Sequence record: NC_028881.1
Length of the DNA stretch: 64,000 bases
Origin: Escherichia phage vb_EcoM-VR5
Direction: 5' to 3' (one strand)
Both the position numbers and the translations under genes were made by a program. The notes below the pieces were generated by a model. It was not told the origin of the DNA and did no database searches. It worked only from the letters and a program-made list of their open reading frames with translations. This document shows positions 2,402 through 47,018 of the stretch, piece after piece. Position 1 is the stretch's first letter; the number at the start of each line of letters is the position of its first letter.

Positions 2402-2995
2402 TTACTTAAGTGAATTGATGTAGTCTTCGATATCAGCTGAAGTCGTATCCATTCCAACTTGAGGGCCTTTAAACGTTTCTACACGCATCAGGGTATCTTC
2501 AATATCAATCTTAGTCAGTGCAGCGATTTCAACAACATCGTCAGCAGTAGCAATACCTAATGCAGCCATATTACGAGTTTCACGGATGTATTCAAGCTTA
2601 ACTGCTAGTTCTTGTCGAGAGTCATCAAGTTCCTTAACCTTAAGCTTGATTTCATTACGCATTTCGATATAATCGTCGGCTTTCTTACGAAGTTGAGTAG
2701 CTGTACGACGATAAAGGAGGCCGAGTTTAGCATGTACCTGGACATCGGCACCTTCAGCAATCAATTTACGGATTTCACGTTCTTTAGAACTAGCCAGTTG
2801 GTCCTTTTCGTTAGCGAGTTCACGAATACGTTTTTCTTCACTTACAGACTTAACGTGAGCAGTCTGGAGCTCGGTAATTTTATCAATTAGAGTAGAAGCA
2901 GCTTTAGTGTATTGGTCTTCAATTGACAGGTTCTGGGCCATTGCGGTACCAAGTTTAGAGCGGATGAATTCAACGATTTTCTTTAAAGTGTTCAT
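2402..2995 (-). CDS. Coiled-coil protein, possibly PspA/IM30-like
   Basis: 197 aa, predicted almost entirely heptad-rich alpha-helix; N-terminal amphipathic helix followed by long charged coiled coil resembling the PspA/Vipp1 pattern; driven by early promoter P1. Confidence 0.45.
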
Positions 2996-3033
2996 AGTAT
3001 TTCCTTCAGTGGTTGTTTCGTTTTGATAGGTCT

Positions 3034-3062
3034 ATAGTATCACGTTTAAAGGTGATGTAAAC
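3034..3062 (-). promoter_or_regulatory. Early sigma70-like promoter P1 (GTTTAC-N17-TACTAT) with A/T-rich upstream region
   Basis: Reverse strand reads GTTTACA..17 nt..TACTAT followed by the conserved leader TAGACCTATCAAAAC. Confidence 0.6.
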
Positions 3063-3096
3063 TGCTTTGTGAAATTATTTTTGGTCTAACCCCCTA

Positions 3097-3118
3097 AAAG
3101 GAGACCGAAGTCTCCTTT
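3097..3118 (-). terminator. Stem-loop terminator
   Basis: AAAGGAGAC-CGAA-GTCTCCTTT hairpin followed by a T-run on the minus strand. Confidence 0.5.
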
Positions 3119-3153
3119 CATTATTTACAGGTCTTTTCGAACTGGGCAGTGAA

Positions 3154-3708
3154 TCAGTTCTTGTAGAACCGGAATGGGTTTATGTGGAAGGCTAACATGG
3201 CTTTATGGATTTTACGAGACAAAAGACTCTTAAGCTTCCAGCCACAGTACACGCGAAGGTAAAATGTGATTCCACCAACCTTAAGATAAGGAACTGAAGC
3301 AAATACACCCCAGGCATCATCATTCCACATCCATAACCAACCATGGTGAGCTTTATCAGGAGAACCAGATTCTACATCAGGATTACCGCGATAATGGAAT
3401 TCTGAACTACAATCACGTCCTAGTTTATGGTAAGCAAAGTTATAAGCTTTATTTCGCCATAGCCAAGCTACTCTCTGGAGATAAACACCACCAGGCATTT
3501 TCCTGATTTTAGCCCAACGTTTAATATGACCTTTGTCGCCGTCAATTGGATTATCGTATGTCATCATCCAATCAAAGCCATAAGGCAATTTACCGGTCTT
3601 TTTATTGTAGAAAGGAACTACAAAAGGCGCAAGGATAACGGCTAGAACCATAGAGATAAAATCTAGTGGGACCAACAGAATCCAACTCAAATATTTTAAA
3701 AGTTTCAT
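3154..3708 (-). CDS. Membrane-anchored protein (N-terminal TM helix, Trp/His-rich C-terminal domain); late-expressed
   Basis: 184 aa ORF; exact TATAAATA on the minus strand (3735-3742) about 27 nt upstream of the ATG. Confidence 0.55.
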   Translation of the reverse strand: MKLLKYLSWILLVPLDFISMVLAVILAPFVVPFYNKKTGKLPYGFDWMMTYDNPIDGDKGHIKRWAKIRKMPGGVYLQRVAWLWRNKAYNFAYHKLGRDCSSEFHYRGNPDVESGSPDKAHHGWLWMWNDDAWGVFASVPYLKVGGITFYLRVYCGWKLKSLLSRKIHKAMLAFHINPFRFYKN

Positions 3709-3734
3709 ATTATTTCCTAAGTTAGTTTACTACA

Positions 3735-3742
3735 TATTTATA
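3735..3742 (-). promoter_or_regulatory. Late promoter (TATAAATA)
   Basis: Exact T4 late-promoter octamer on the minus strand upstream of the 184 aa gene. Confidence 0.55.
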
Positions 3743-3743
3743 C

Positions 3744-3771
3744 AAAAAAGGCCCAACCTTTCGGAAGGGCC
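3744..3771 (-). terminator. Rho-independent terminator (28-nt element, identical copy at 49509-49536)
   Basis: GGCCC..GGGCC hairpin followed by a T-run on the minus strand; lies downstream of the tRNA cluster. Confidence 0.55.
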
Positions 3772-3780
3772 TTTAACCTA

Positions 3781-3941
3781 GGGTAACCTTGTCGGGGTTC
3801 CACCTGCTAGGCAAGTGTTCGGTGCGCCGTTTCAGCTGTGATATAAGGGGGCATTAACAAAACATAAAGATTTATTAATGCCAGTCCTTAAACAGAGAAC
3901 TTCAGTCCGACGACTTACCGGTAGCGACCCGGTTTCTTGTT
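3781..3941 (-). ncRNA. Possible small structured RNA downstream of tRNA-Arg
   Basis: No ORF; several local hairpins (for example GGCATTAA..TTAATGCC); lies between tRNA-Arg and the terminator; by analogy to stable RNAs in T4 tRNA clusters. Confidence 0.2.
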
Positions 3942-37710: not shown

Positions 37711-39270
37711 ATGAAAAAGAATGCATTAGTACAAAAATGGTCCGCTCTGCTGGAAAACGAAGCTCTTCCTGAAATCGTTGGTGCTTCTAAACAAGCTATC
37801 ATCGCTAAAATCTTTGAAAACCAGGAACAAGATATTCTGACCGCTCCTGAATATCGTGACGAAAAAATCTCCGAAGCATTTGGTTCTTTCCTGACTGAAG
37901 CTGAAATCGGTGGTGACCACGGTTATGATGCTACCAATATCGCAGCTGGCCAGACCTCTGGTGCAGTAACTCAGATTGGGCCGGCAGTTATGGGTATGGT
38001 TCGTCGTGCTATTCCTCATCTGATTGCTTTTGATATTTGTGGTGTCCAGCCTCTGAATAACCCTACCGGCCAGGTATTTGCCCTGCGTGCAGTTTACGGT
38101 AAAGACCCTGTAGCTGCTGGTGCTAAAGAAGCTTTCCACCCGATGTATGCTCCGAACGCTATGTTCTCTGGTCAGGGCGCTGCTGAAGCTTTCGAAGCTC
38201 TGGCTGCAAGCAAAGTTCTTACCGTTGGTAAAATTTATTCTCACTTCTTCGAAGCAACCGGTTCTGCACACTTCCAGGCTGTTGAAGCTGTAACCGTTGA
38301 TGCCGCCGCTACTGATGCCGCTAAACTTGACGCTGAAGTTACCAAACTGCTCGAAGCTGGTAAGCTGGCAGAAATCGCTGAAGGTATGGCTACTTCTATC
38401 GCCGAACTTCAGGAAGGCTTTAACGGTTCCCAGGATAACCCGTGGAACGAAATGGGCTTCCGCATCGATAAACAAGTTATCGAAGCTAAATCCCGTCAGC
38501 TGAAAGCAAGCTACTCCATCGAACTGGCACAGGACCTTCGTGCAGTACACGGTATGGATGCAGATGCTGAACTGAGTGGTATTCTTGCTACTGAAATTAT
38601 GTTGGAAATCAACCGTGAAGTTATCGATTGGATTAACTATTCTGCACAGGTTGGTAAATCTGGTATGACCAACACCGTTGGCGCTAAAGCTGGTGTGTTT
38701 GACTTCCAGGACCCGATTGATATCCGTGGTGCTCGTTGGGCCGGTGAAAGCTTTAAAGCTCTCCTGTTCCAGATTGATAAAGAAGCCGCCGAAATCGCTC
38801 GTCAGACCGGTCGTGGTGCTGGTAACTTCATCATCGCTTCCCGTAACGTAGTTAACGTACTGGCTGCAGTTGATACTTCTGTAAGTTATGCCGCTCAGGG
38901 TCTTGGTCAAGGTTTCAACGTTGACACCACTAAAGCAGTATTTGCCGGTGTTCTTGGTGGTAAATATCGCGTTTACATCGACCAGTATGCTCGTGCTGAT
39001 TACTTCACCATCGGTTATAAAGGTTCTAACGAAATGGACGCAGGTATCTACTATGCTCCTTACGTTGCACTGACCCCACTGCGTGGTTCCGATCCGAAGA
39101 ACTTCCAGCCGGTAATGGGCTTCAAAACTCGTTACGGTATCGGTATTAACCCGTTCGCTGACCCAGCTGCTCAGGCACCTACCAAACGTATTCAGAATGG
39201 TATGCCGGACATCGTTAACAGCCTCGGTCTGAATGGTTACTTCCGTCGTGTTTACGTTAAAGGTATCTAA
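37711..39270 (+). CDS. 23: gp23 major capsid protein
   Basis: 519 aa; long blocks recognisably T4 gp23-like (for example GGDHGYDATNIAAGQTSGAVTQIGPAVMGMVRRAIP). Confidence 0.97.
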   Translation: MKKNALVQKWSALLENEALPEIVGASKQAIIAKIFENQEQDILTAPEYRDEKISEAFGSFLTEAEIGGDHGYDATNIAAGQTSGAVTQIGPAVMGMVRRAIPHLIAFDICGVQPLNNPTGQVFALRAVYGKDPVAAGAKEAFHPMYAPNAMFSGQGAAEAFEALAASKVLTVGKIYSHFFEATGSAHFQAVEAVTVDAAATDAAKLDAEVTKLLEAGKLAEIAEGMATSIAELQEGFNGSQDNPWNEMGFRIDKQVIEAKSRQLKASYSIELAQDLRAVHGMDADAELSGILATEIMLEINREVIDWINYSAQVGKSGMTNTVGAKAGVFDFQDPIDIRGARWAGESFKALLFQIDKEAAEIARQTGRGAGNFIIASRNVVNVLAAVDTSVSYAAQGLGQGFNVDTTKAVFAGVLGGKYRVYIDQYARADYFTIGYKGSNEMDAGIYYAPYVALTPLRGSDPKNFQPVMGFKTRYGIGINPFADPAAQAPTKRIQNGMPDIVNSLGLNGYFRRVYVKGI

Positions 39271-39285
39271 GACATAACCTTATTA

Positions 39286-39305
39286 TGGGAGACTTCGGTC
39301 TCCCA
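39286..39305 (+). terminator. Terminator after gene 23
   Basis: TGGGAGAC-TTCG-GTCTCCCA hairpin followed by a T-rich tract. Confidence 0.6.
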
Positions 39306-39319
39306 TTCTTGTTTCTGTA

Positions 39320-39586
39320 CTATACAATCTTGACTCGACGGTTGATAATATCGCGGAAGTCAATACGATTTTCTTGGATTTTCAACCAGTTACCAGATTT
39401 GTCTTTGGTGTGGGTAGAATATTCACCATTCCACCAGAAGTCAGTAGCATAAGTCATGGTTTCGTATTTCTTAACTAACGCATTAACTGCATTACCGTTA
39501 GGATTGCGGCCAAATTTTTCTACCAAGGCTTTGATGTCTTTATCAAGAGCTGAAAGTGTAGTACGAATAAAGTTTAACTTGTTCAT
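39320..39586 (-). CDS. Hypothetical early protein wedged between late genes 23 and 24
   Basis: ORF 39320..39601; likely start MNKLNFIR with AGGAGA ribosome-binding site; its own early promoter P4 directly upstream. Confidence 0.55.
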   Translation of the reverse strand: MNKLNFIRTTLSALDKDIKALVEKFGRNPNGNAVNALVKKYETMTYATDFWWNGEYSTHTKDKSGNWLKIQENRIDFRDIINRRVKIV

Positions 39587-39615
39587 TTTTAATCTCCTCA
39601 TGTTTTGATAGGTTT

Positions 39616-39651: not shown

Positions 39652-39659
39652 TATAAATA
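39652..39659 (+). promoter_or_regulatory. Late promoter TATAAATA for gene 24
   Basis: Exact octamer 28 nt upstream of the gp24 ATG, back-to-back with P4. Confidence 0.6.
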
Positions 39660-39687
39660 AACATATACCCTCAATAAGGAAAGCGCA

Positions 39688-40968
39688 ATGGCAAAGATTA
39701 ACGAATTACTGCGCGAGTCAACAACTACTACCAGCAACTCATTGGGTCGCCCTAATCTTGTTGCTTTGACCCGTGCTACCACTAAACTAATTTATCGCGA
39801 TATCATCGCTGAACAGCGTACAAACCAGCCTATCGCTGCGTTATACGGTGTCAAATACCTTACCCCTGATAATGAATTTAGCTTCCAGACCGGTGCTACT
39901 TACGGTGGTGAAGTTGGTTCTAAAGACCGTGAAACTATCCCAGAATTAACAGATAAGTCCCAGGCTATTGCCAAGGGTGGCTACTTTAAGTATCAGAATG
40001 TGGTTTATAAGGCTTTGGTTGCAAGCCCACTCGCATCTACTAGCGCCATAGATTTGTCTGATGCTCTCCAAGAAGGTTTGGTGTCATTAACTTGCCGTCT
40101 TGTCCCTGATGCAGCTCATACCGAGAAATTCGAAGCTGGAGATGTTGAAATTAGTAATGCCGTGTTCCAGGTCAATAAATGGAACGCACCAGTTAAATCT
40201 CGTAAGCTGAAAACGGCTTTGACTGTAGAACTAGCCCAGGATATGGAATCTAATGGCTTTGATGCTCCAGCATTCCTTGAAGACCTCCTGGCTACAGTAA
40301 TGGCCGATGAAATTAACAAAGATGTTCTGCAGTCATTGATTACCGTATCTAAACGTTATAAAGTTACTGGTGTTTCTGATAACGGTATTATCGACCTTTC
40401 TTATGACTCTGCACCAGAATCTGCTCGTAAGCTGTACGAAATGGTTTGTGAAATGAATTCCGAAATCCAGAAAACAACTTCTTATTCCGCTACATTTGTT
40501 GTAGCTTCTTCACGTGTTGCTGCTATGCTTGCTGGTTCAGGTTGGTTAAAACACAAGCCGGAAGATGAGGCTTGGCTCCCGGAAACCGCGTATGGTTATT
40601 TGATTAATGGCTTACCTGTGTTCTGTGATGTGAATAGTCCATTGGATTATGTTACCGTAGGCGTTAAAGAAAACTATGGTGGTAATGAAGTTGTTGGTTC
40701 TATTTTCTATGCGCCGTATACTGAAGGCCTAGATTTAGATGATGAAGAACACGTCGGTGCTTATAAGGTAATTGTCGACCCAGACAGTTTACAACCTTCT
40801 ATTTCTCTGATGGTTCGTTATGCGTTGTCTGCCAACCCTTATACCGTAGCCAAAGATGATAAAGAAGCCCGTGTTATCGATGCAACTAATATGGACTTGA
40901 TGGCGGGCCAGAGCAATATGTCTTATCTGCTTGGTGTTAAATTGCCTAAAATAATTTATGAGGCGTAA
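39688..40968 (+). CDS. 24: gp24 capsid vertex protein (copy 1)
   Basis: 426 aa; gp23-related fold; position after gene 23. Confidence 0.9.
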   Translation: MAKINELLRESTTTTSNSLGRPNLVALTRATTKLIYRDIIAEQRTNQPIAALYGVKYLTPDNEFSFQTGATYGGEVGSKDRETIPELTDKSQAIAKGGYFKYQNVVYKALVASPLASTSAIDLSDALQEGLVSLTCRLVPDAAHTEKFEAGDVEISNAVFQVNKWNAPVKSRKLKTALTVELAQDMESNGFDAPAFLEDLLATVMADEINKDVLQSLITVSKRYKVTGVSDNGIIDLSYDSAPESARKLYEMVCEMNSEIQKTTSYSATFVVASSRVAAMLAGSGWLKHKPEDEAWLPETAYGYLINGLPVFCDVNSPLDYVTVGVKENYGGNEVVGSIFYAPYTEGLDLDDEEHVGAYKVIVDPDSLQPSISLMVRYALSANPYTVAKDDKEARVIDATNMDLMAGQSNMSYLLGVKLPKIIYEA

Positions 40969-42249
40969 ATGCAAAAGATTAACGCACTAATCCATGAATC
41001 AACTCTGACGGCGGCCAACTCGGTCGCTCGTCCTACTCTTCTCTCATATACTAAAGCTACTAACAAACGTATCTTTAAATCACTTGTAGCCGAACAAAAG
41101 ACACGCCAGCCTGTGGCGGCGCTTTATGGTATTCGTGTTCTGAACCCAGCAGATAAAATGACTTATCTTGGCGGCGCAACGTTTGCTGGTGAAATTGGTA
41201 TGTTTGAACGTTCTCAGATTCCAGAGGTAGTAGGTCCTAATGAAGCTTATGTCGTCGGTGATATGTTCCAATTTGAAAATGTTGTTTTCAAAGTACTAGA
41301 AGCATCTCCTTTCGCCGGTACAGCCGAAACTGAGATGGGTGAAGTTATTTCTGAAGCTATTGCTGCTGGTCATATTCGTATGGTTTCTGATGCGGCTCAG
41401 ACTTCTAAATTTGAAAAAGGTCATCCTGAGATTGCCGAAGCCGGATTCCGTATCGATAAATGGCAGACTGAAGTTAAATCTCGTAAGTTAAAAACTTCAT
41501 TAACTGTAGAACTAGCCCAAGACCTAGAATCCAATGGATTCAATGCCCCAGGATTTATCGAAGATATTCTTGGAATCCAGATGGCAGAGGAAATTAATAA
41601 GGACGTACTTCAGTCATTGATTACTGTAAGTTCCCGTTTTAAAGTCCAAGGTGTTTCTGAAAAAGGTGTTCTTAACCTTACAGACCCACAGTATGATAAT
41701 GCCCAAGACCGAGCTCGTACATTGTATTATTATATGTGTGAAATGAACTCAGCGGTCCAACGTAATACATCATTCGCTGGTACATATGCCGTAGCTAGTT
41801 CCCGTTGTGCCGCTATTCTTGCCGCGTCCGGCTGGGTCGAGAAAAAAGATGACCAAGACGAATTAGCTTATGGTGTTCTGAAGAACGGTCTACCACTTTA
41901 TGCTGATGTGAATAGTCCGTGTGATTATGTTATCGTCGGTGTGAATGCAGATATTGGTGAAGGACAGACGGTCGCATCTTTGTACTATGCGCCTTATGTG
42001 GAAGGCCTGGACAACGTAGATGATGAGGGTGATACTTCTGTAGGTGAATTCAAGGTTATCGTTGACCCTGAAAGCTTACAGCCTACCGTCGCCTTGTTGG
42101 CTCGATATGCACTGACAGCAAACCCGTATACCGTTGCCAAAGATGATAAAGAAGCTCGTATTATTGATGGGTCCGATATGGATAAGATGGCTAACCAAAG
42201 TCAATTGAGTTCTTATCTTGGTGTTAAACTTCCACCACTAGAAAAATAA
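40969..42249 (+). CDS. gp24 paralog (copy 2), tandem duplicate
   Basis: 426 aa; clearly homologous to copy 1 along the whole length but substantially diverged (shared blocks WQTEVKSRKLKT, TVELAQDLESNGF, ANPYTVAKDDKEAR). Confidence 0.85.
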   Translation: MQKINALIHESTLTAANSVARPTLLSYTKATNKRIFKSLVAEQKTRQPVAALYGIRVLNPADKMTYLGGATFAGEIGMFERSQIPEVVGPNEAYVVGDMFQFENVVFKVLEASPFAGTAETEMGEVISEAIAAGHIRMVSDAAQTSKFEKGHPEIAEAGFRIDKWQTEVKSRKLKTSLTVELAQDLESNGFNAPGFIEDILGIQMAEEINKDVLQSLITVSSRFKVQGVSEKGVLNLTDPQYDNAQDRARTLYYYMCEMNSAVQRNTSFAGTYAVASSRCAAILAASGWVEKKDDQDELAYGVLKNGLPLYADVNSPCDYVIVGVNADIGEGQTVASLYYAPYVEGLDNVDDEGDTSVGEFKVIVDPESLQPTVALLARYALTANPYTVAKDDKEARIIDGSDMDKMANQSQLSSYLGVKLPPLEK

Positions 42250-42270
42250 AAGGGACCGTAAGGTCCCTTT
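42248..42270. terminator. Bidirectional terminator between gp24 copy 2 and rnlB
   Basis: AAAGGGACC-GTAA-GGTCCCTTT hairpin flanked by A-run and T-run. Confidence 0.6.
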
Positions 42271-42275
42271 ATCGT

Positions 42276-43283
42276 TTATTTGGATACTAATTCAATCCAC
42301 ACAGCTCGTAGCGTATCTTTAACACACTCAATGAGCTGCTTTTTAACTTCAACAGGATTTTCTGCATCGGTTAATTCTAATTCTTCACGGGACGCCTCTT
42401 CCAAAATATCTTGGACTGTTAGTCCCATTACCTTTCCGAAATCCTTAGGCGTTACTTCACCAATCTTACTGATAACATTGTTAATACGGTTAACAGTCAC
42501 ATAATCAGTGAATTGCCACATCAGGTCCATGTCATCTTGGGACAATACTACTACAGCCTTGATAGGCTTATCGGATTTTTTCTTCTCGCTGAATTTAGAG
42601 TTCTTACATTTAATCGCTACTCGATTTCCATTTGGAAGCCAGGTAGGAACATCAGGTTTCAGTACAAAGCCTTCAGCCGTAAATACTTTGCCTTCAACCT
42701 TTGGAATAAAATCAGTCGAGTTTGCGATAGTCAGGCCTGCATTATCCACCGCAAAATTGTAATCAGGAACCACAGAATCAAAATCATTAGGGAGCTTAAT
42801 AAGGTCTTCAAAGCTACCAGTAGCCAGACATGGAGCCACCTTAAACTTGTGGATAATACAGAAAGCTTCCATCAATGTATCAGTCAGAACAGATTCTGTG
42901 CCGTCGTCTTTAGTAACGCGGATATCGAACACATAAAAATCTTTATCACCATAATCCACATTCTTCTGAATACCTGAACCGGCGAACTCGCCATAAATCT
43001 GGTACGACTGATAATCAATCGATTCAATTAGATGCTGAACAGATTTAATAGAATCAGCATAATTCTTTAAAACAATTTCATAACCATAAAAGTCTTCAGC
43101 AGGAAGAATAGGGCCTGTGCGCTTAGCGCATGTGACTGCGTCACGTTCAATAATTAAACTAAAGTTCGTACCATGAATCTTCTCACGTGCTACCCACTCA
43201 CCATCGGTCATACCATGGGTACGGAGTTTTTCAATGAACTTATTGTTGTAGTGGTTTTCCAGACTGCTATATTTCTTGAACAT
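42276..43283 (-). CDS. rnlB: RNA ligase 2 (Rnl2)
   Basis: 335 aa; N-terminus [13 protein letters not shown] and nucleotidyltransferase motif I EKIHGTNF; T4-like throughout. Confidence 0.92.
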
Positions 43284-43760: not shown

Positions 43761-45062
<1,302 letters not shown>

Positions 45063-45071
45063 GGACTACAA

Positions 45072-45890
45072 ATGGCTATTACATTAAGTCCATCTTCAAT
45101 AGACGTAGAATACGGTGACTCTTATACAGTCACTGCTAATATTCCAGATATTAGCCCTGGTTCATCTATTGTGTATAACTGGACTAAGAATAAAAAATTT
45201 ATTAGTTCCGGAACTAATGTATTCACTGAAATAGCATCATCGGTAGAAACATTCAGTATTGCGTGCCGAATTGAAATTATATCACCTGATAAAAACACTG
45301 AATATATTTTATCGGATTCTTGCTTGGTTAATGTTAGTAAAAACATAAAAGCGGACGGTATAAATTCTCAGCTAGTTTATTCACCGGATGTTCATAAAAT
45401 AGGTGACCAAGTTATTCTTTCTGTAGAATCCCACCATGTAGACCCTGGCTATATTAAAGGAGTTATTTGGAAAGATCCATCGGGTAATGTCGTGTCAATT
45501 GGTAAAGAATATACGCATAAGATTAAGACGACAGAAGATGTTGTAGATGTAAAAATAGATTTGGCTTCTGAAAATTATGCATATTACAATAAAACACTTC
45601 AAATTGTTCTTAAAGCTATTGAAGAAGATAATTCGGAGTGTAGTGTAAGATATATTCATCCTTTAGACCACAGGGATTCAGGATACATCTGGATGGGTTG
45701 GTGGGTTATGGACGAAATTGAAAGGGCTACGGTAGAAGGATTAAATTGGAAAGCGCCGGACGGTACTGACCTGAAGTATAAGTGCGACTTGAAAACTCTT
45801 TCTATAATGCTTGACTTATATAATAATGTTGAAGTACAAGAATCAAGGAATGGTTATATTCTAAACAGGGCAGATTTACTTCCAAAATAA
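45072..45890 (+). CDS. Hoc-like paralog: two Ig-like domains plus a Hoc-type C-terminal capsid-binding domain
   Basis: 272 aa; C-terminal YIHPLDHRDSGYIWMGWWVMDEI...VEVQESRNGYILNRADL aligns with the Hoc C-terminus on the opposite strand (YVHPLPVRSTAYIWCGWWVMDAI...VDVQESRNGRIVHRSAL). Confidence 0.7.
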   Translation: MAITLSPSSIDVEYGDSYTVTANIPDISPGSSIVYNWTKNKKFISSGTNVFTEIASSVETFSIACRIEIISPDKNTEYILSDSCLVNVSKNIKADGINSQLVYSPDVHKIGDQVILSVESHHVDPGYIKGVIWKDPSGNVVSIGKEYTHKIKTTEDVVDVKIDLASENYAYYNKTLQIVLKAIEEDNSECSVRYIHPLDHRDSGYIWMGWWVMDEIERATVEGLNWKAPDGTDLKYKCDLKTLSIMLDLYNNVEVQESRNGYILNRADLLPK

Positions 45891-45914: not shown

Positions 45915-47018
45915 TTAATAGACGTAATCGTATATAATACCAGCTTCCAATGCCGAACGGTGGACGATACGACCGTTACGAGATTCCTGTACATCAACTT
46001 CCGGGTAATCACTAAGCATTTTGGCTAATACCGCCAGATGACAATAATATGGTGTATTCTCTTTAGTGGCTTTTTTCCAATCTGTACTTTCAGATGTTAA
46101 TTTCTGAATGGCGTCCATAACCCACCAACCACACCAAATATACGCAGTACTACGAACAGGAAGTGGATGTACATAAATTAAAGGACATTCTTCTGGAACA
46201 ACAGGCTCTGCTTCTGCCACCGTAACAGACTTATTACCTGATTTAACTGAATTTGTAAAGCCTGTTTGCGATGCTGTAACTTCACAAGTATATGACTTCA
46301 AGCCTTCAGTGGATTCCGTTATTGCTCTTGTTGCTTCTGTTGAGTTGTCGTCCCATTTATATGCAAGAGTAGCGCCAGGAATAGCAGGGGACACAGAAGC
46401 TGTCAAATTGAATGGAACATCAACCGTCGCAGTAGACGGGCCTGAAATCTCAACAGTGAACTCAGGAAATGTATTGTTTTCGACCGTAACAACTACTGCA
46501 TCAGGATTAATAACTTGATTGTCATAATCTGCCGCAGAAACGGTAATTTGGCAAGTTAAAGAAACCGGTCCTGCAACAGTAGCGGTACGAGTAATATCTT
46601 TAGTAGTTTCACCAGTAGACCACAAATATGCTATTGTAGCTCCACCTGGTTCACCTGTTACATTAGCCGAAGCGTTATATTCCTGACCAACTTTAACAGT
46701 AGGAGTGGAAGTTGTTAATGTTGCAGTTGCAGCCATAGTCTTATTATTAACCGTGATGGTTGTTTGAGCCTCTGCCGTTTCAGGCTCTCCTTCTTCCGGC
46801 GTTGTGGTGGCAACAACTTTAATTACTTTTGAACCTGCTGGCCCAGCTGCAATATAATCCATAGTAGCAATAACAGAATCTTGTGGAACATCATCAACGG
46901 TCCATACAAAAGATTCGGTACCAGCGACAGCGGCTCCAGCTCCAGTGGCAGTAAAATTAGTTGTTGCACCTATAACCGCTGTAGGTGTTAAAGGGGCAAT
47001 TGATACAGTATAAGCCAT
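45915..47018 (-). CDS. hoc: Hoc, highly immunogenic outer capsid protein (three Ig-like domains plus capsid-binding domain)
   Basis: 367 aa; Ig-like repeats; C-terminal capsid-binding block; adjacent to inh as in T4. Confidence 0.85.
   Translation of the reverse strand: MAYTVSIAPLTPTAVIGATTNFTATGAGAAVAGTESFVWTVDDVPQDSVIATMDYIAAGPAGSKVIKVVATTTPEEGEPETAEAQTTITVNNKTMAATATLTTSTPTVKVGQEYNASANVTGEPGGATIAYLWSTGETTKDITRTATVAGPVSLTCQITVSAADYDNQVINPDAVVVTVENNTFPEFTVEISGPSTATVDVPFNLTASVSPAIPGATLAYKWDDNSTEATRAITESTEGLKSYTCEVTASQTGFTNSVKSGNKSVTVAEAEPVVPEECPLIYVHPLPVRSTAYIWCGWWVMDAIQKLTSESTDWKKATKENTPYYCHLAVLAKMLSDYPEVDVQESRNGRIVHRSALEAGIIYDYVY

Follow-up and report, generated by a model that had tools for sequence, protein, structure and literature searches.

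Two Adjacent Capsid Vertex Protein Genes of Escherichia Phage VR5 Appear to Belong to Old and Separate gp24 Lineages

Escherichia phage vb_EcoM-VR5 (NC_028881.1; VR5 below) was examined over a stretch of 64,000 nucleotides, called here the window, in which two homologs of gene 24, the capsid vertex protein gene of T4, adjoin each other at positions 39688 to 42249. Our analysis suggests that the products of both genes (copy I and copy II) are genuine subunits of the vertices, synthesized late from a single transcript, cut by the prohead protease gp21, and placed in pentamers, where they would have non-identical roles. We hold this reading with moderate confidence: its structural-protein part is well supported by the sequences, and the division of labor between the copies is what we infer from them. 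The word “duplication” is best taken, at this locus, to mean a paralogy of great age whose members travel as a cassette.

For the construction and closure of a prolate icosahedral shell, the T4 head serves as a standard model, and vaccine display uses it as a platform. If copy II is a second long-conserved vertex protein, present in a sizeable group of near relatives of T4, the textbook head, with gp23 hexamers, one type of gp24 pentamer, and a portal, would be one variant among several. VR5 and the related phage JS98 are culturable coliphages and also phage-therapy candidates.

Both Copies Are gp24-Type Proteins

Gene 24-I (24a; 39688-40968, plus strand) encodes capsid vertex protein I, the orthologue of T4 gp24, and gene 24-II (24b; 40969-42249, plus strand) encodes capsid vertex protein II, which appears to represent a separate old gp24 lineage. 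An original prediction, made from the DNA letters alone, had described two gp24 homologs of 426 amino acids lying head to tail. This was borne out, as both open reading frames (ORFs) have 426 codons for amino acids, adjoin each other on the plus strand without internal stops or frameshifts, and match T4 gp24. The same prediction had judged by eye that the copies are homologous along their whole length and substantially diverged, and the pairwise alignment agrees, with 54% identity and 74% positives over the full length (BLASTP, E 5e-173). That T4 itself has a single gp24 also holds, the T4 records showing one gp24 locus per genome.

Judged by their sequences, both copies are gp24-type and not gp23-type, since the full-length match to T4 gp24 is by far the stronger one. 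Copy I is 71% and copy II 57% identical to T4 gp24; copy II aligned with the latter (PDB 1YUE/7VS5) over residues 1-423 at an E value of 1.7e-149 and with the T4 gp23 chains over residues 153-394 only, at an E value of about 2e-11. The gp23 encoded in the window (37711-39270) was 29% identical to the copies, over the C-terminal 250-280 amino acids only (E 5e-19 for copy I and 1e-21 for copy II). The Gp23 family profile PF07068 gave 325.9 bits with copy I (E 5.7e-97) and 330.3 bits with copy II, the gathering cutoff being 24.4. PF07068 and phrog_138 were the only family matches of copy II, with no sign of a new domain or activity. From the 57-71% identity to the solved T4 gp24, both copies are expected to have the HK97 fold with an insertion domain. 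An AlphaFold2 model of copy II, built on 30 aligned sequences, had low confidence (mean predicted local distance difference test score of 45.6). The predicted mature proteins have nearly equal masses (about 45 kDa) and isoelectric points (4.7), so that they could be told apart only by mass spectrometry or cryo-electron microscopy.

The two copies resemble T4 gp24 (1YUE; in the capsid 5VF3, 7VS5, and 8GMO) in their full-length alignment, their length, their late promoter, their position between gene 23 and rnlB, and an N-terminal propeptide motif of ten residues ending in E/S, the slash marking the predicted cut. Unlike T4, in which one gene supplies all 55 vertex subunits, two apparently co-transcribed paralogs are found here, and copy II, unlike T4 gp24, is substituted at positions that are invariant in the single-copy gp24s compared.

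The presence of two copies, as stated in the original prediction, is already annotated and known. The proteins are identical to VR5 “capsid vertex protein I” (AIZ01962.1 / YP_009205869.1) and “II” (AIZ01963.1 / YP_009205870.1) and form the same pair as gp24a and gp24b of JS98 (EF469154), where the genes are annotated as 24a and 24b; the window copies are 95.5% (24a) and 90% (24b) identical to these, and at the level of the observation there is no difference. The VR25 pair is annotated as vertex proteins I and II, and S16 (Gelderlandvirus) as well as F48 and BM7 (Marfavirus) have two adjacent annotated vertex genes each; many further phages have the pair annotated as well. Over this region, the window shares 88-92% DNA identity with the JS98-like coliphages of Dhakavirus, the genus of VR5. 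The duplication of gene 24 in JS98 is reportedly mentioned by Chibani-Chennoufi et al. in the Journal of Bacteriology in 2004; full-text searches of the open-access literature turned up no discussion of two gp24 genes. What our analysis adds to the visible database annotations is that copy II is apparently an old paralog of separate lineage, which reaches phages like Erwinia phage FBB1, reassorts with copy I, moves as part of a cassette, and is absent from some Gaprivervirus phages, making it dispensable in some backgrounds.

Phylogeny Places the Split of the Two Copies before VR5

Two trees were used to date the pair. The first was a neighbor-joining tree (200 bootstraps, rooted on gp23) of 26 gp24 sequences, drawn from 18 annotated phage loci and the window. 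The second comprised 106 sequences, with relatives added from a search of a large protein collection, and was bootstrapped with gamma-corrected distances as well. In the first tree, the type-I copies formed a clade (98%) nested with the gp24 of T4, Karamvirus, and PM2 (88%), and the type-II copies formed their own clade (100%) outside this entire group. The second tree gave the type-II family 98% support (88% with gamma correction), again outside the clade of type-I and T4 sequences, and grouped copy I with the T4, Karamvirus, and PM2 gp24 at 78%; the clade of type-I genes and T4-like single genes was found at 74% (64% with gamma correction). The type-II family, with these relatives added, takes in proteins at 77-96% identity as well as a group at 68-70% to which Erwinia phage FBB1 belongs. 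Three type-I synapomorphies (I39, N164, and D208) are absent from copy II, which has the state of the more distant gp24s serving as outgroup.

Across ten genomes, the identity between I and II was constant at 54-57%, and the pairwise identities among type-I copies ran in parallel with those among type-II copies (Spearman correlation of 0.95). Gene conversion between I and II was considered and rejected, as no tracts were found and nucleotide identity reached at most 70-71% over 194-300 nucleotides. A recent lineage-specific tandem duplication was likewise rejected, as I and II are not mutual closest relatives and the pair is not confined to one lineage.

The split between I and II is therefore not an event of VR5 or of Dhakavirus. 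It appears to reach back at least to the radiation behind the type-I genes of T4, Karamvirus, and Dhakavirus, and in our preferred reading it precedes the divergence of these and the PM2-like type-I genes. The “tandem duplication” of the original prediction is apt for the adjoining homologous copies, but it fails as an event in VR5, since I groups with T4 gp24 and II lies outside. Given that the pair is conserved in at least four genera and in Erwinia phage FBB1, at 54-57% identity, T4 may have come to its single gp24 by losing a copy and need not show the original condition.

The Pair Is Widespread, Patchy, and Apparently Exchanged as a Cassette

Dhakavirus, Gaprivervirus, Gelderlandvirus, and Marfavirus have the I-II pair, as do Erwinia phage FBB1 and a number of metagenomic contigs. 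Among about 1416 phage records with a gp24, 92 or more have a type-II gene, counted from 80% identity upward. Four metagenomic type-II genes, found on six contigs, all showed the synteny gp23, I, II, with rnlB further downstream. In a tree of gp23, two-copy and one-copy genomes were sisters at several points: S16 (two copies) with CkP1 (one) at 100%, the contig L021 (two copies) with JD18 (one) at 100%, and the Dhakavirus/Gaprivervirus group (two copies) with PM2 (one) at 97%. In the Gaprivervirus phages RZ, SP18, DK-13, and P479, and in the more distant AnYang, rnlB is accompanied by one gp24 gene, and type II is absent. The gp23 of RZ is 98.1% identical to that of the window, and a single gp24 in phages of the RZ/SP18 type with a 98%-identical gp23 shows that copy II is not required to close a gp23 lattice of the JS98 type.

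The two copies also reassort. Closely related type-II genes (a subclade with 90% bootstrap) stand beside type-I genes of three different subclades. In the first gp24 tree, the window copy I joined JS98 and ESCO10 (100%), and the window copy II fell outside JS98, ESCO10, and VR25 (97%); these conflicting branching orders point to a recombination breakpoint within the gene 24 pair and to a mosaic history. Between the window and JS98, synonymous divergence was about 0.2 in gene 23 and 0.9-1.1 in both gene 24 copies. T4-like phages recombine freely, and it appears that, since I and II separated, recombination has passed the I-II cassette and alleles with a single gene between the enterobacterial members of this group.

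RZ (NC_070780; gp24 at 2501-3781 of locus L017) and VR25, which has the I-II pair, are members of one genus in which vertex-gene alleles have been swapped naturally. The RZ gp24 had been suspected of being a fusion of I and II produced by unequal recombination, as its 3' end aligned with both VR25 copies in blastn. Sliding windows refuted this suspicion, with about 70% nucleotide identity to copy I throughout and lower identity to copy II. By its sequence, the RZ gp24 is a foreign type-I allele and not a I/II chimera.

Both Copies Are under Purifying Selection and Diverge by Region

Selection on the copies was estimated as the ratio of nonsynonymous to synonymous substitution rates (dN/dS, or omega; pairwise Nei-Gojobori) among Dhakavirus, Gaprivervirus, and Gelderlandvirus orthologues, giving 0.03-0.06 for copy I and 0.02-0.08 for copy II. 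By region, omega ranged in both copies from 0.012-0.016 (residues 155-230) up to 0.10-0.14 (insertion-domain segment), the regional constraint profile of II being the same as that of I. E10 and S11 were invariant in 30 of 30 aligned sequences, copy I reading LLRE/S and copy II LIHE/S. In T4, the prohead protease cuts between these two, taking off ten residues (PMC9546572), and Ser11 of copy II aligns with the first residue of the mature T4 gp24* chain in 5VF3. Both copies thus keep what looks like a gp21 site and would be cleaved after Glu10. Strong purifying selection and the kept E10-S11 indicate that neither copy is a pseudogene.

That one of the copies is decaying, is on its way to becoming a pseudogene, or arose as an artefact of sequencing or assembly is hardly credible. 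All that speaks for it is the general expectation that duplicates decay. It is countered by the low dN/dS (0.02-0.08), by the intactness of both ORFs throughout the ten genomes and contigs examined, which come from independent isolates and metagenomes, and by the 92 or more records with a type-II gene. The original prediction had named a degraded copy as what would overturn it; with dN/dS at 0.03-0.07 in both copies, this is excluded.

To locate the differences between the copies, positions were given in T4 numbering, with domain limits from PMC9546572. Identity between I and II was lowest in the insertion domain (residues 82-142; 33%) and in linker 1 (36%) and highest in residues 155-230, the spine/P region (71%), and in the C-terminal 68 residues (67%). 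In T4, the insertion domain rests on the neighboring subunit of the same capsomer (PMC9546572). Fifty-two columns were fixed differently between the I and II clades, most densely in the N-arm (11-59) and in residues 231-347. Where all eight single-copy gp24s in the comparison share one residue, copy II has about ten substitutions (L27Y, T32N, L34R, Y36F, K56R, Y57V, P244Q, L288V, E335Q, and F341Y) and copy I has two (L312V and Y313F).

The Two Genes Probably Form One Late Operon

The gene order in the window is gp21-gp22-gp23-(small ORF)-24-I-24-II-rnlB. A terminator-like hairpin on the plus strand after gene 23 (39285..39306), with a 9-bp stem of which 5 pairs are GC, followed by a T-rich tail, would separate the end of the gene 23 transcript from the gene 24 unit. 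The T4-type late promoter motif TATAAATA is found on the plus strand at 39652..39659, starting 36 nucleotides before the 24-I ATG. This motif had 19 matches in the window (7.8 expected), none of them between 39660 and 42249. In all nine of the nine two-copy genomes, the motif starts 33-37 nucleotides before gene I, and in none does it lie inside gene I. A scan for sigma-70 promoters was uninformative (12 sites against 12.7 expected).

At the start of 24-I, a Shine-Dalgarno sequence AAGGA (39677..39681, plus strand) lies 6 nucleotides before the ATG at 39688. That of 24-II, GAGG (40960..40963, plus strand), lies within the last codons of 24-I, 5 nucleotides before the ATG, which directly follows the TAA stop of 24-I (40966-40968). 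In the junctions read in other genomes, II begins directly at the stop codon of I or overlaps it (ATGA or TAATG overlaps), and several of these genomes have a weak ribosome site for II. From this stop/start junction, the two genes are probably translationally coupled, and the locus has the appearance of a conserved bicistronic late operon in which II is served by the promoter of I. Downstream, a bidirectional terminator-like hairpin on both strands (42249..42270; 9-bp stem, 5 GC pairs) is common to 24-II and to the convergent rnlB (42276-43283, minus strand).

Codon adaptation to the usage of gp23 was lower for II than for I in six of six genomes (0.41 against 0.46 in the window), the gap being marginal in ESCO10 (0.442 against 0.444). 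This is a weak hint that copy II may be less abundant. Lower codon adaptation and weak ribosome sites, both suggestive of lower abundance, would suit a gp24-II that is not a vertex subunit of the mature shell but an assembly or initiation factor, a transient prohead component, or a defence decoy that engages a system sensing capsid protein, and so would the roughly ten lineage-specific substitutions at otherwise invariant positions, including L27Y, L34R, Y57V, P244Q, and E335Q. We nevertheless find such a role very unlikely, as copy II keeps its full length, all domains, the protease site, the spine/P region (71%), and the C-terminus (67%), and as its constraint profile mirrors that of copy I region by region with PF07068 and phrog_138 the only families found.

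An ORF of 93 amino acids (39320-39601, minus strand; phrog_6003, E 1.4e-48) lies between gene 23 and 24-I on the opposite strand, where the T4 record has homing-endonuclease genes. It is kept in JS98 (orf173), VR25 (VR25_190), and RZ.

Possible Roles of the Two Vertex Proteins

In our preferred reading, one late promoter drives 24-I and 24-II, and ribosomes enter II at a weak-to-moderate site of its own beside the stop codon of I. Both gp24-I and gp24-II would be made late, processed by the prohead protease, and assembled as pentamers into the corners that the portal leaves free. Paralog-specific homopentamers, which would give the head two kinds of corner, seem the most likely arrangement. 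The long retention of both genes under purifying selection argues for non-identical roles. Divergence of the insertion domain, together with fixed differences that are dense in the N-arm and in residues 231-347, is a weak argument that suggests paralog-specific homopentamers. We regard as rather unlikely a more elaborate version in which I and II homopentamers occupy geometrically different corners (for example, the apical corner versus the ten shoulder corners, or a portal-proximal versus a distal ring) and in which the ancestral head had two vertex proteins and that of T4 was secondarily simplified.

A similar theme is known from T4 itself, where the paralogy of gp23 and gp24 and the gp24-bypass (byp24) mutants illustrate that capsid genes duplicate and that one copy specializes for a subset of lattice positions. 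Vertex occupancy is plastic in the bypass mutants (PMC3012670; PMC10580926). The gp23/gp24 pair is about 29% identical, in the C-terminal part only, and divides into hexamers and pentamers, whereas I and II share 54% identity from end to end, and each has the look of a pentamer protein.

Several points weigh against two vertex subunits with non-identical roles and an old origin. The basal placement of copy II relies on neighbor-joining trees and a few conservative substitutions, and fast evolution after duplication could have pulled II outward in the trees. One- and two-copy genomes interleave in the gp23 tree, leaving II patchy, and the single-gp24 Gaprivervirus phages mean that certain backgrounds, at least, can do without II. 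All 55 gp24* subunits of T4 are without significant conformational differences (PMC9546572), so that capsid geometry does not demand two vertex proteins. Searches of the open-access literature found no experiment on any two-copy phage and no virion proteomics or cryo-electron microscopy of one; the phage studied in a proteomics paper that cites F48 was a single-copy Jiaodavirus.

The original prediction took two diverged copies to imply specialized or mixed vertices. Such vertices are a reasonable and plausible proposal, but the implication itself does not follow, given the single-gp24 Gaprivervirus phages with a 98%-identical gp23 and the likeness of the T4 gp24* subunits, and the data do not compel it.

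The same observations lend themselves to another explanation, in which I and II are interchangeable or conditional, either one filling all 11 vertices, so that particles contain a random or condition-dependent mixture. An accessory gene that is patchy on the gp23 tree and missing from viable Gaprivervirus phages with a 98%-identical gp23 would fit this well, as would the reassortment of I and II (one type-II subclade, at 90%, beside three type-I subclades) and the conformational uniformity of T4 gp24 at all vertices. The most divergent and least constrained part of the copies is, moreover, the surface-exposed insertion domain (33% identity; omega 0.10-0.14). Benefits could be sought in temperature, capsid stress in the gut or the environment, chaperone dependence, or escape from a defence or antibody directed at the gp24 surface. 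The VR phages are low-temperature isolates. Without gp24, T4 particles withstand the conditions of the environment and the gut less well (PMC10580926). Against interchangeable copies, pure redundancy would normally not hold both genes at an omega of about 0.05 over such a deep divergence, and obligatory co-transcription from one promoter offers no obvious route to conditional expression. The changes of II at positions invariant in the eight single-copy gp24s also point to a changed function. On balance, we consider interchangeable or conditional copies possible but doubtful and favor two vertex subunits with non-identical roles.

Neighboring Head Genes

Two convergent Hoc-like head-decoration genes were observed downstream, at 45072-45890 (plus strand) and 45915-47018 (minus strand), matching phrog_1149 with E values of 1.8e-57 and 1.4e-114. 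Both proteins have the C-terminal capsid-binding motif YIHPL...GWWVMD...VQESRNG. JS98 has a single hoc at this locus, and, with two Hoc-like genes in VR5 against one in JS98, a second gene for a head-surface protein is also doubled.

A collagen-repeat protein of 433 amino acids is encoded at 43761-45062 (plus strand; PF01391, E 4e-36; phrog_5073 “tail fiber protein,” E 1.5e-111). Its gene lies among head genes, between rnlB/24.3 and hoc, and is absent from JS98. At the corresponding position, ESCO10 has a “host specificity protein,” and IME08 has a “tail fiber-like protein” in the region. The collagen-repeat protein may be a head fiber rather than a tail fiber. A faint collagen ORF was also seen right after gp24-II on an FBB1-like contig (L019, 2676-3674).

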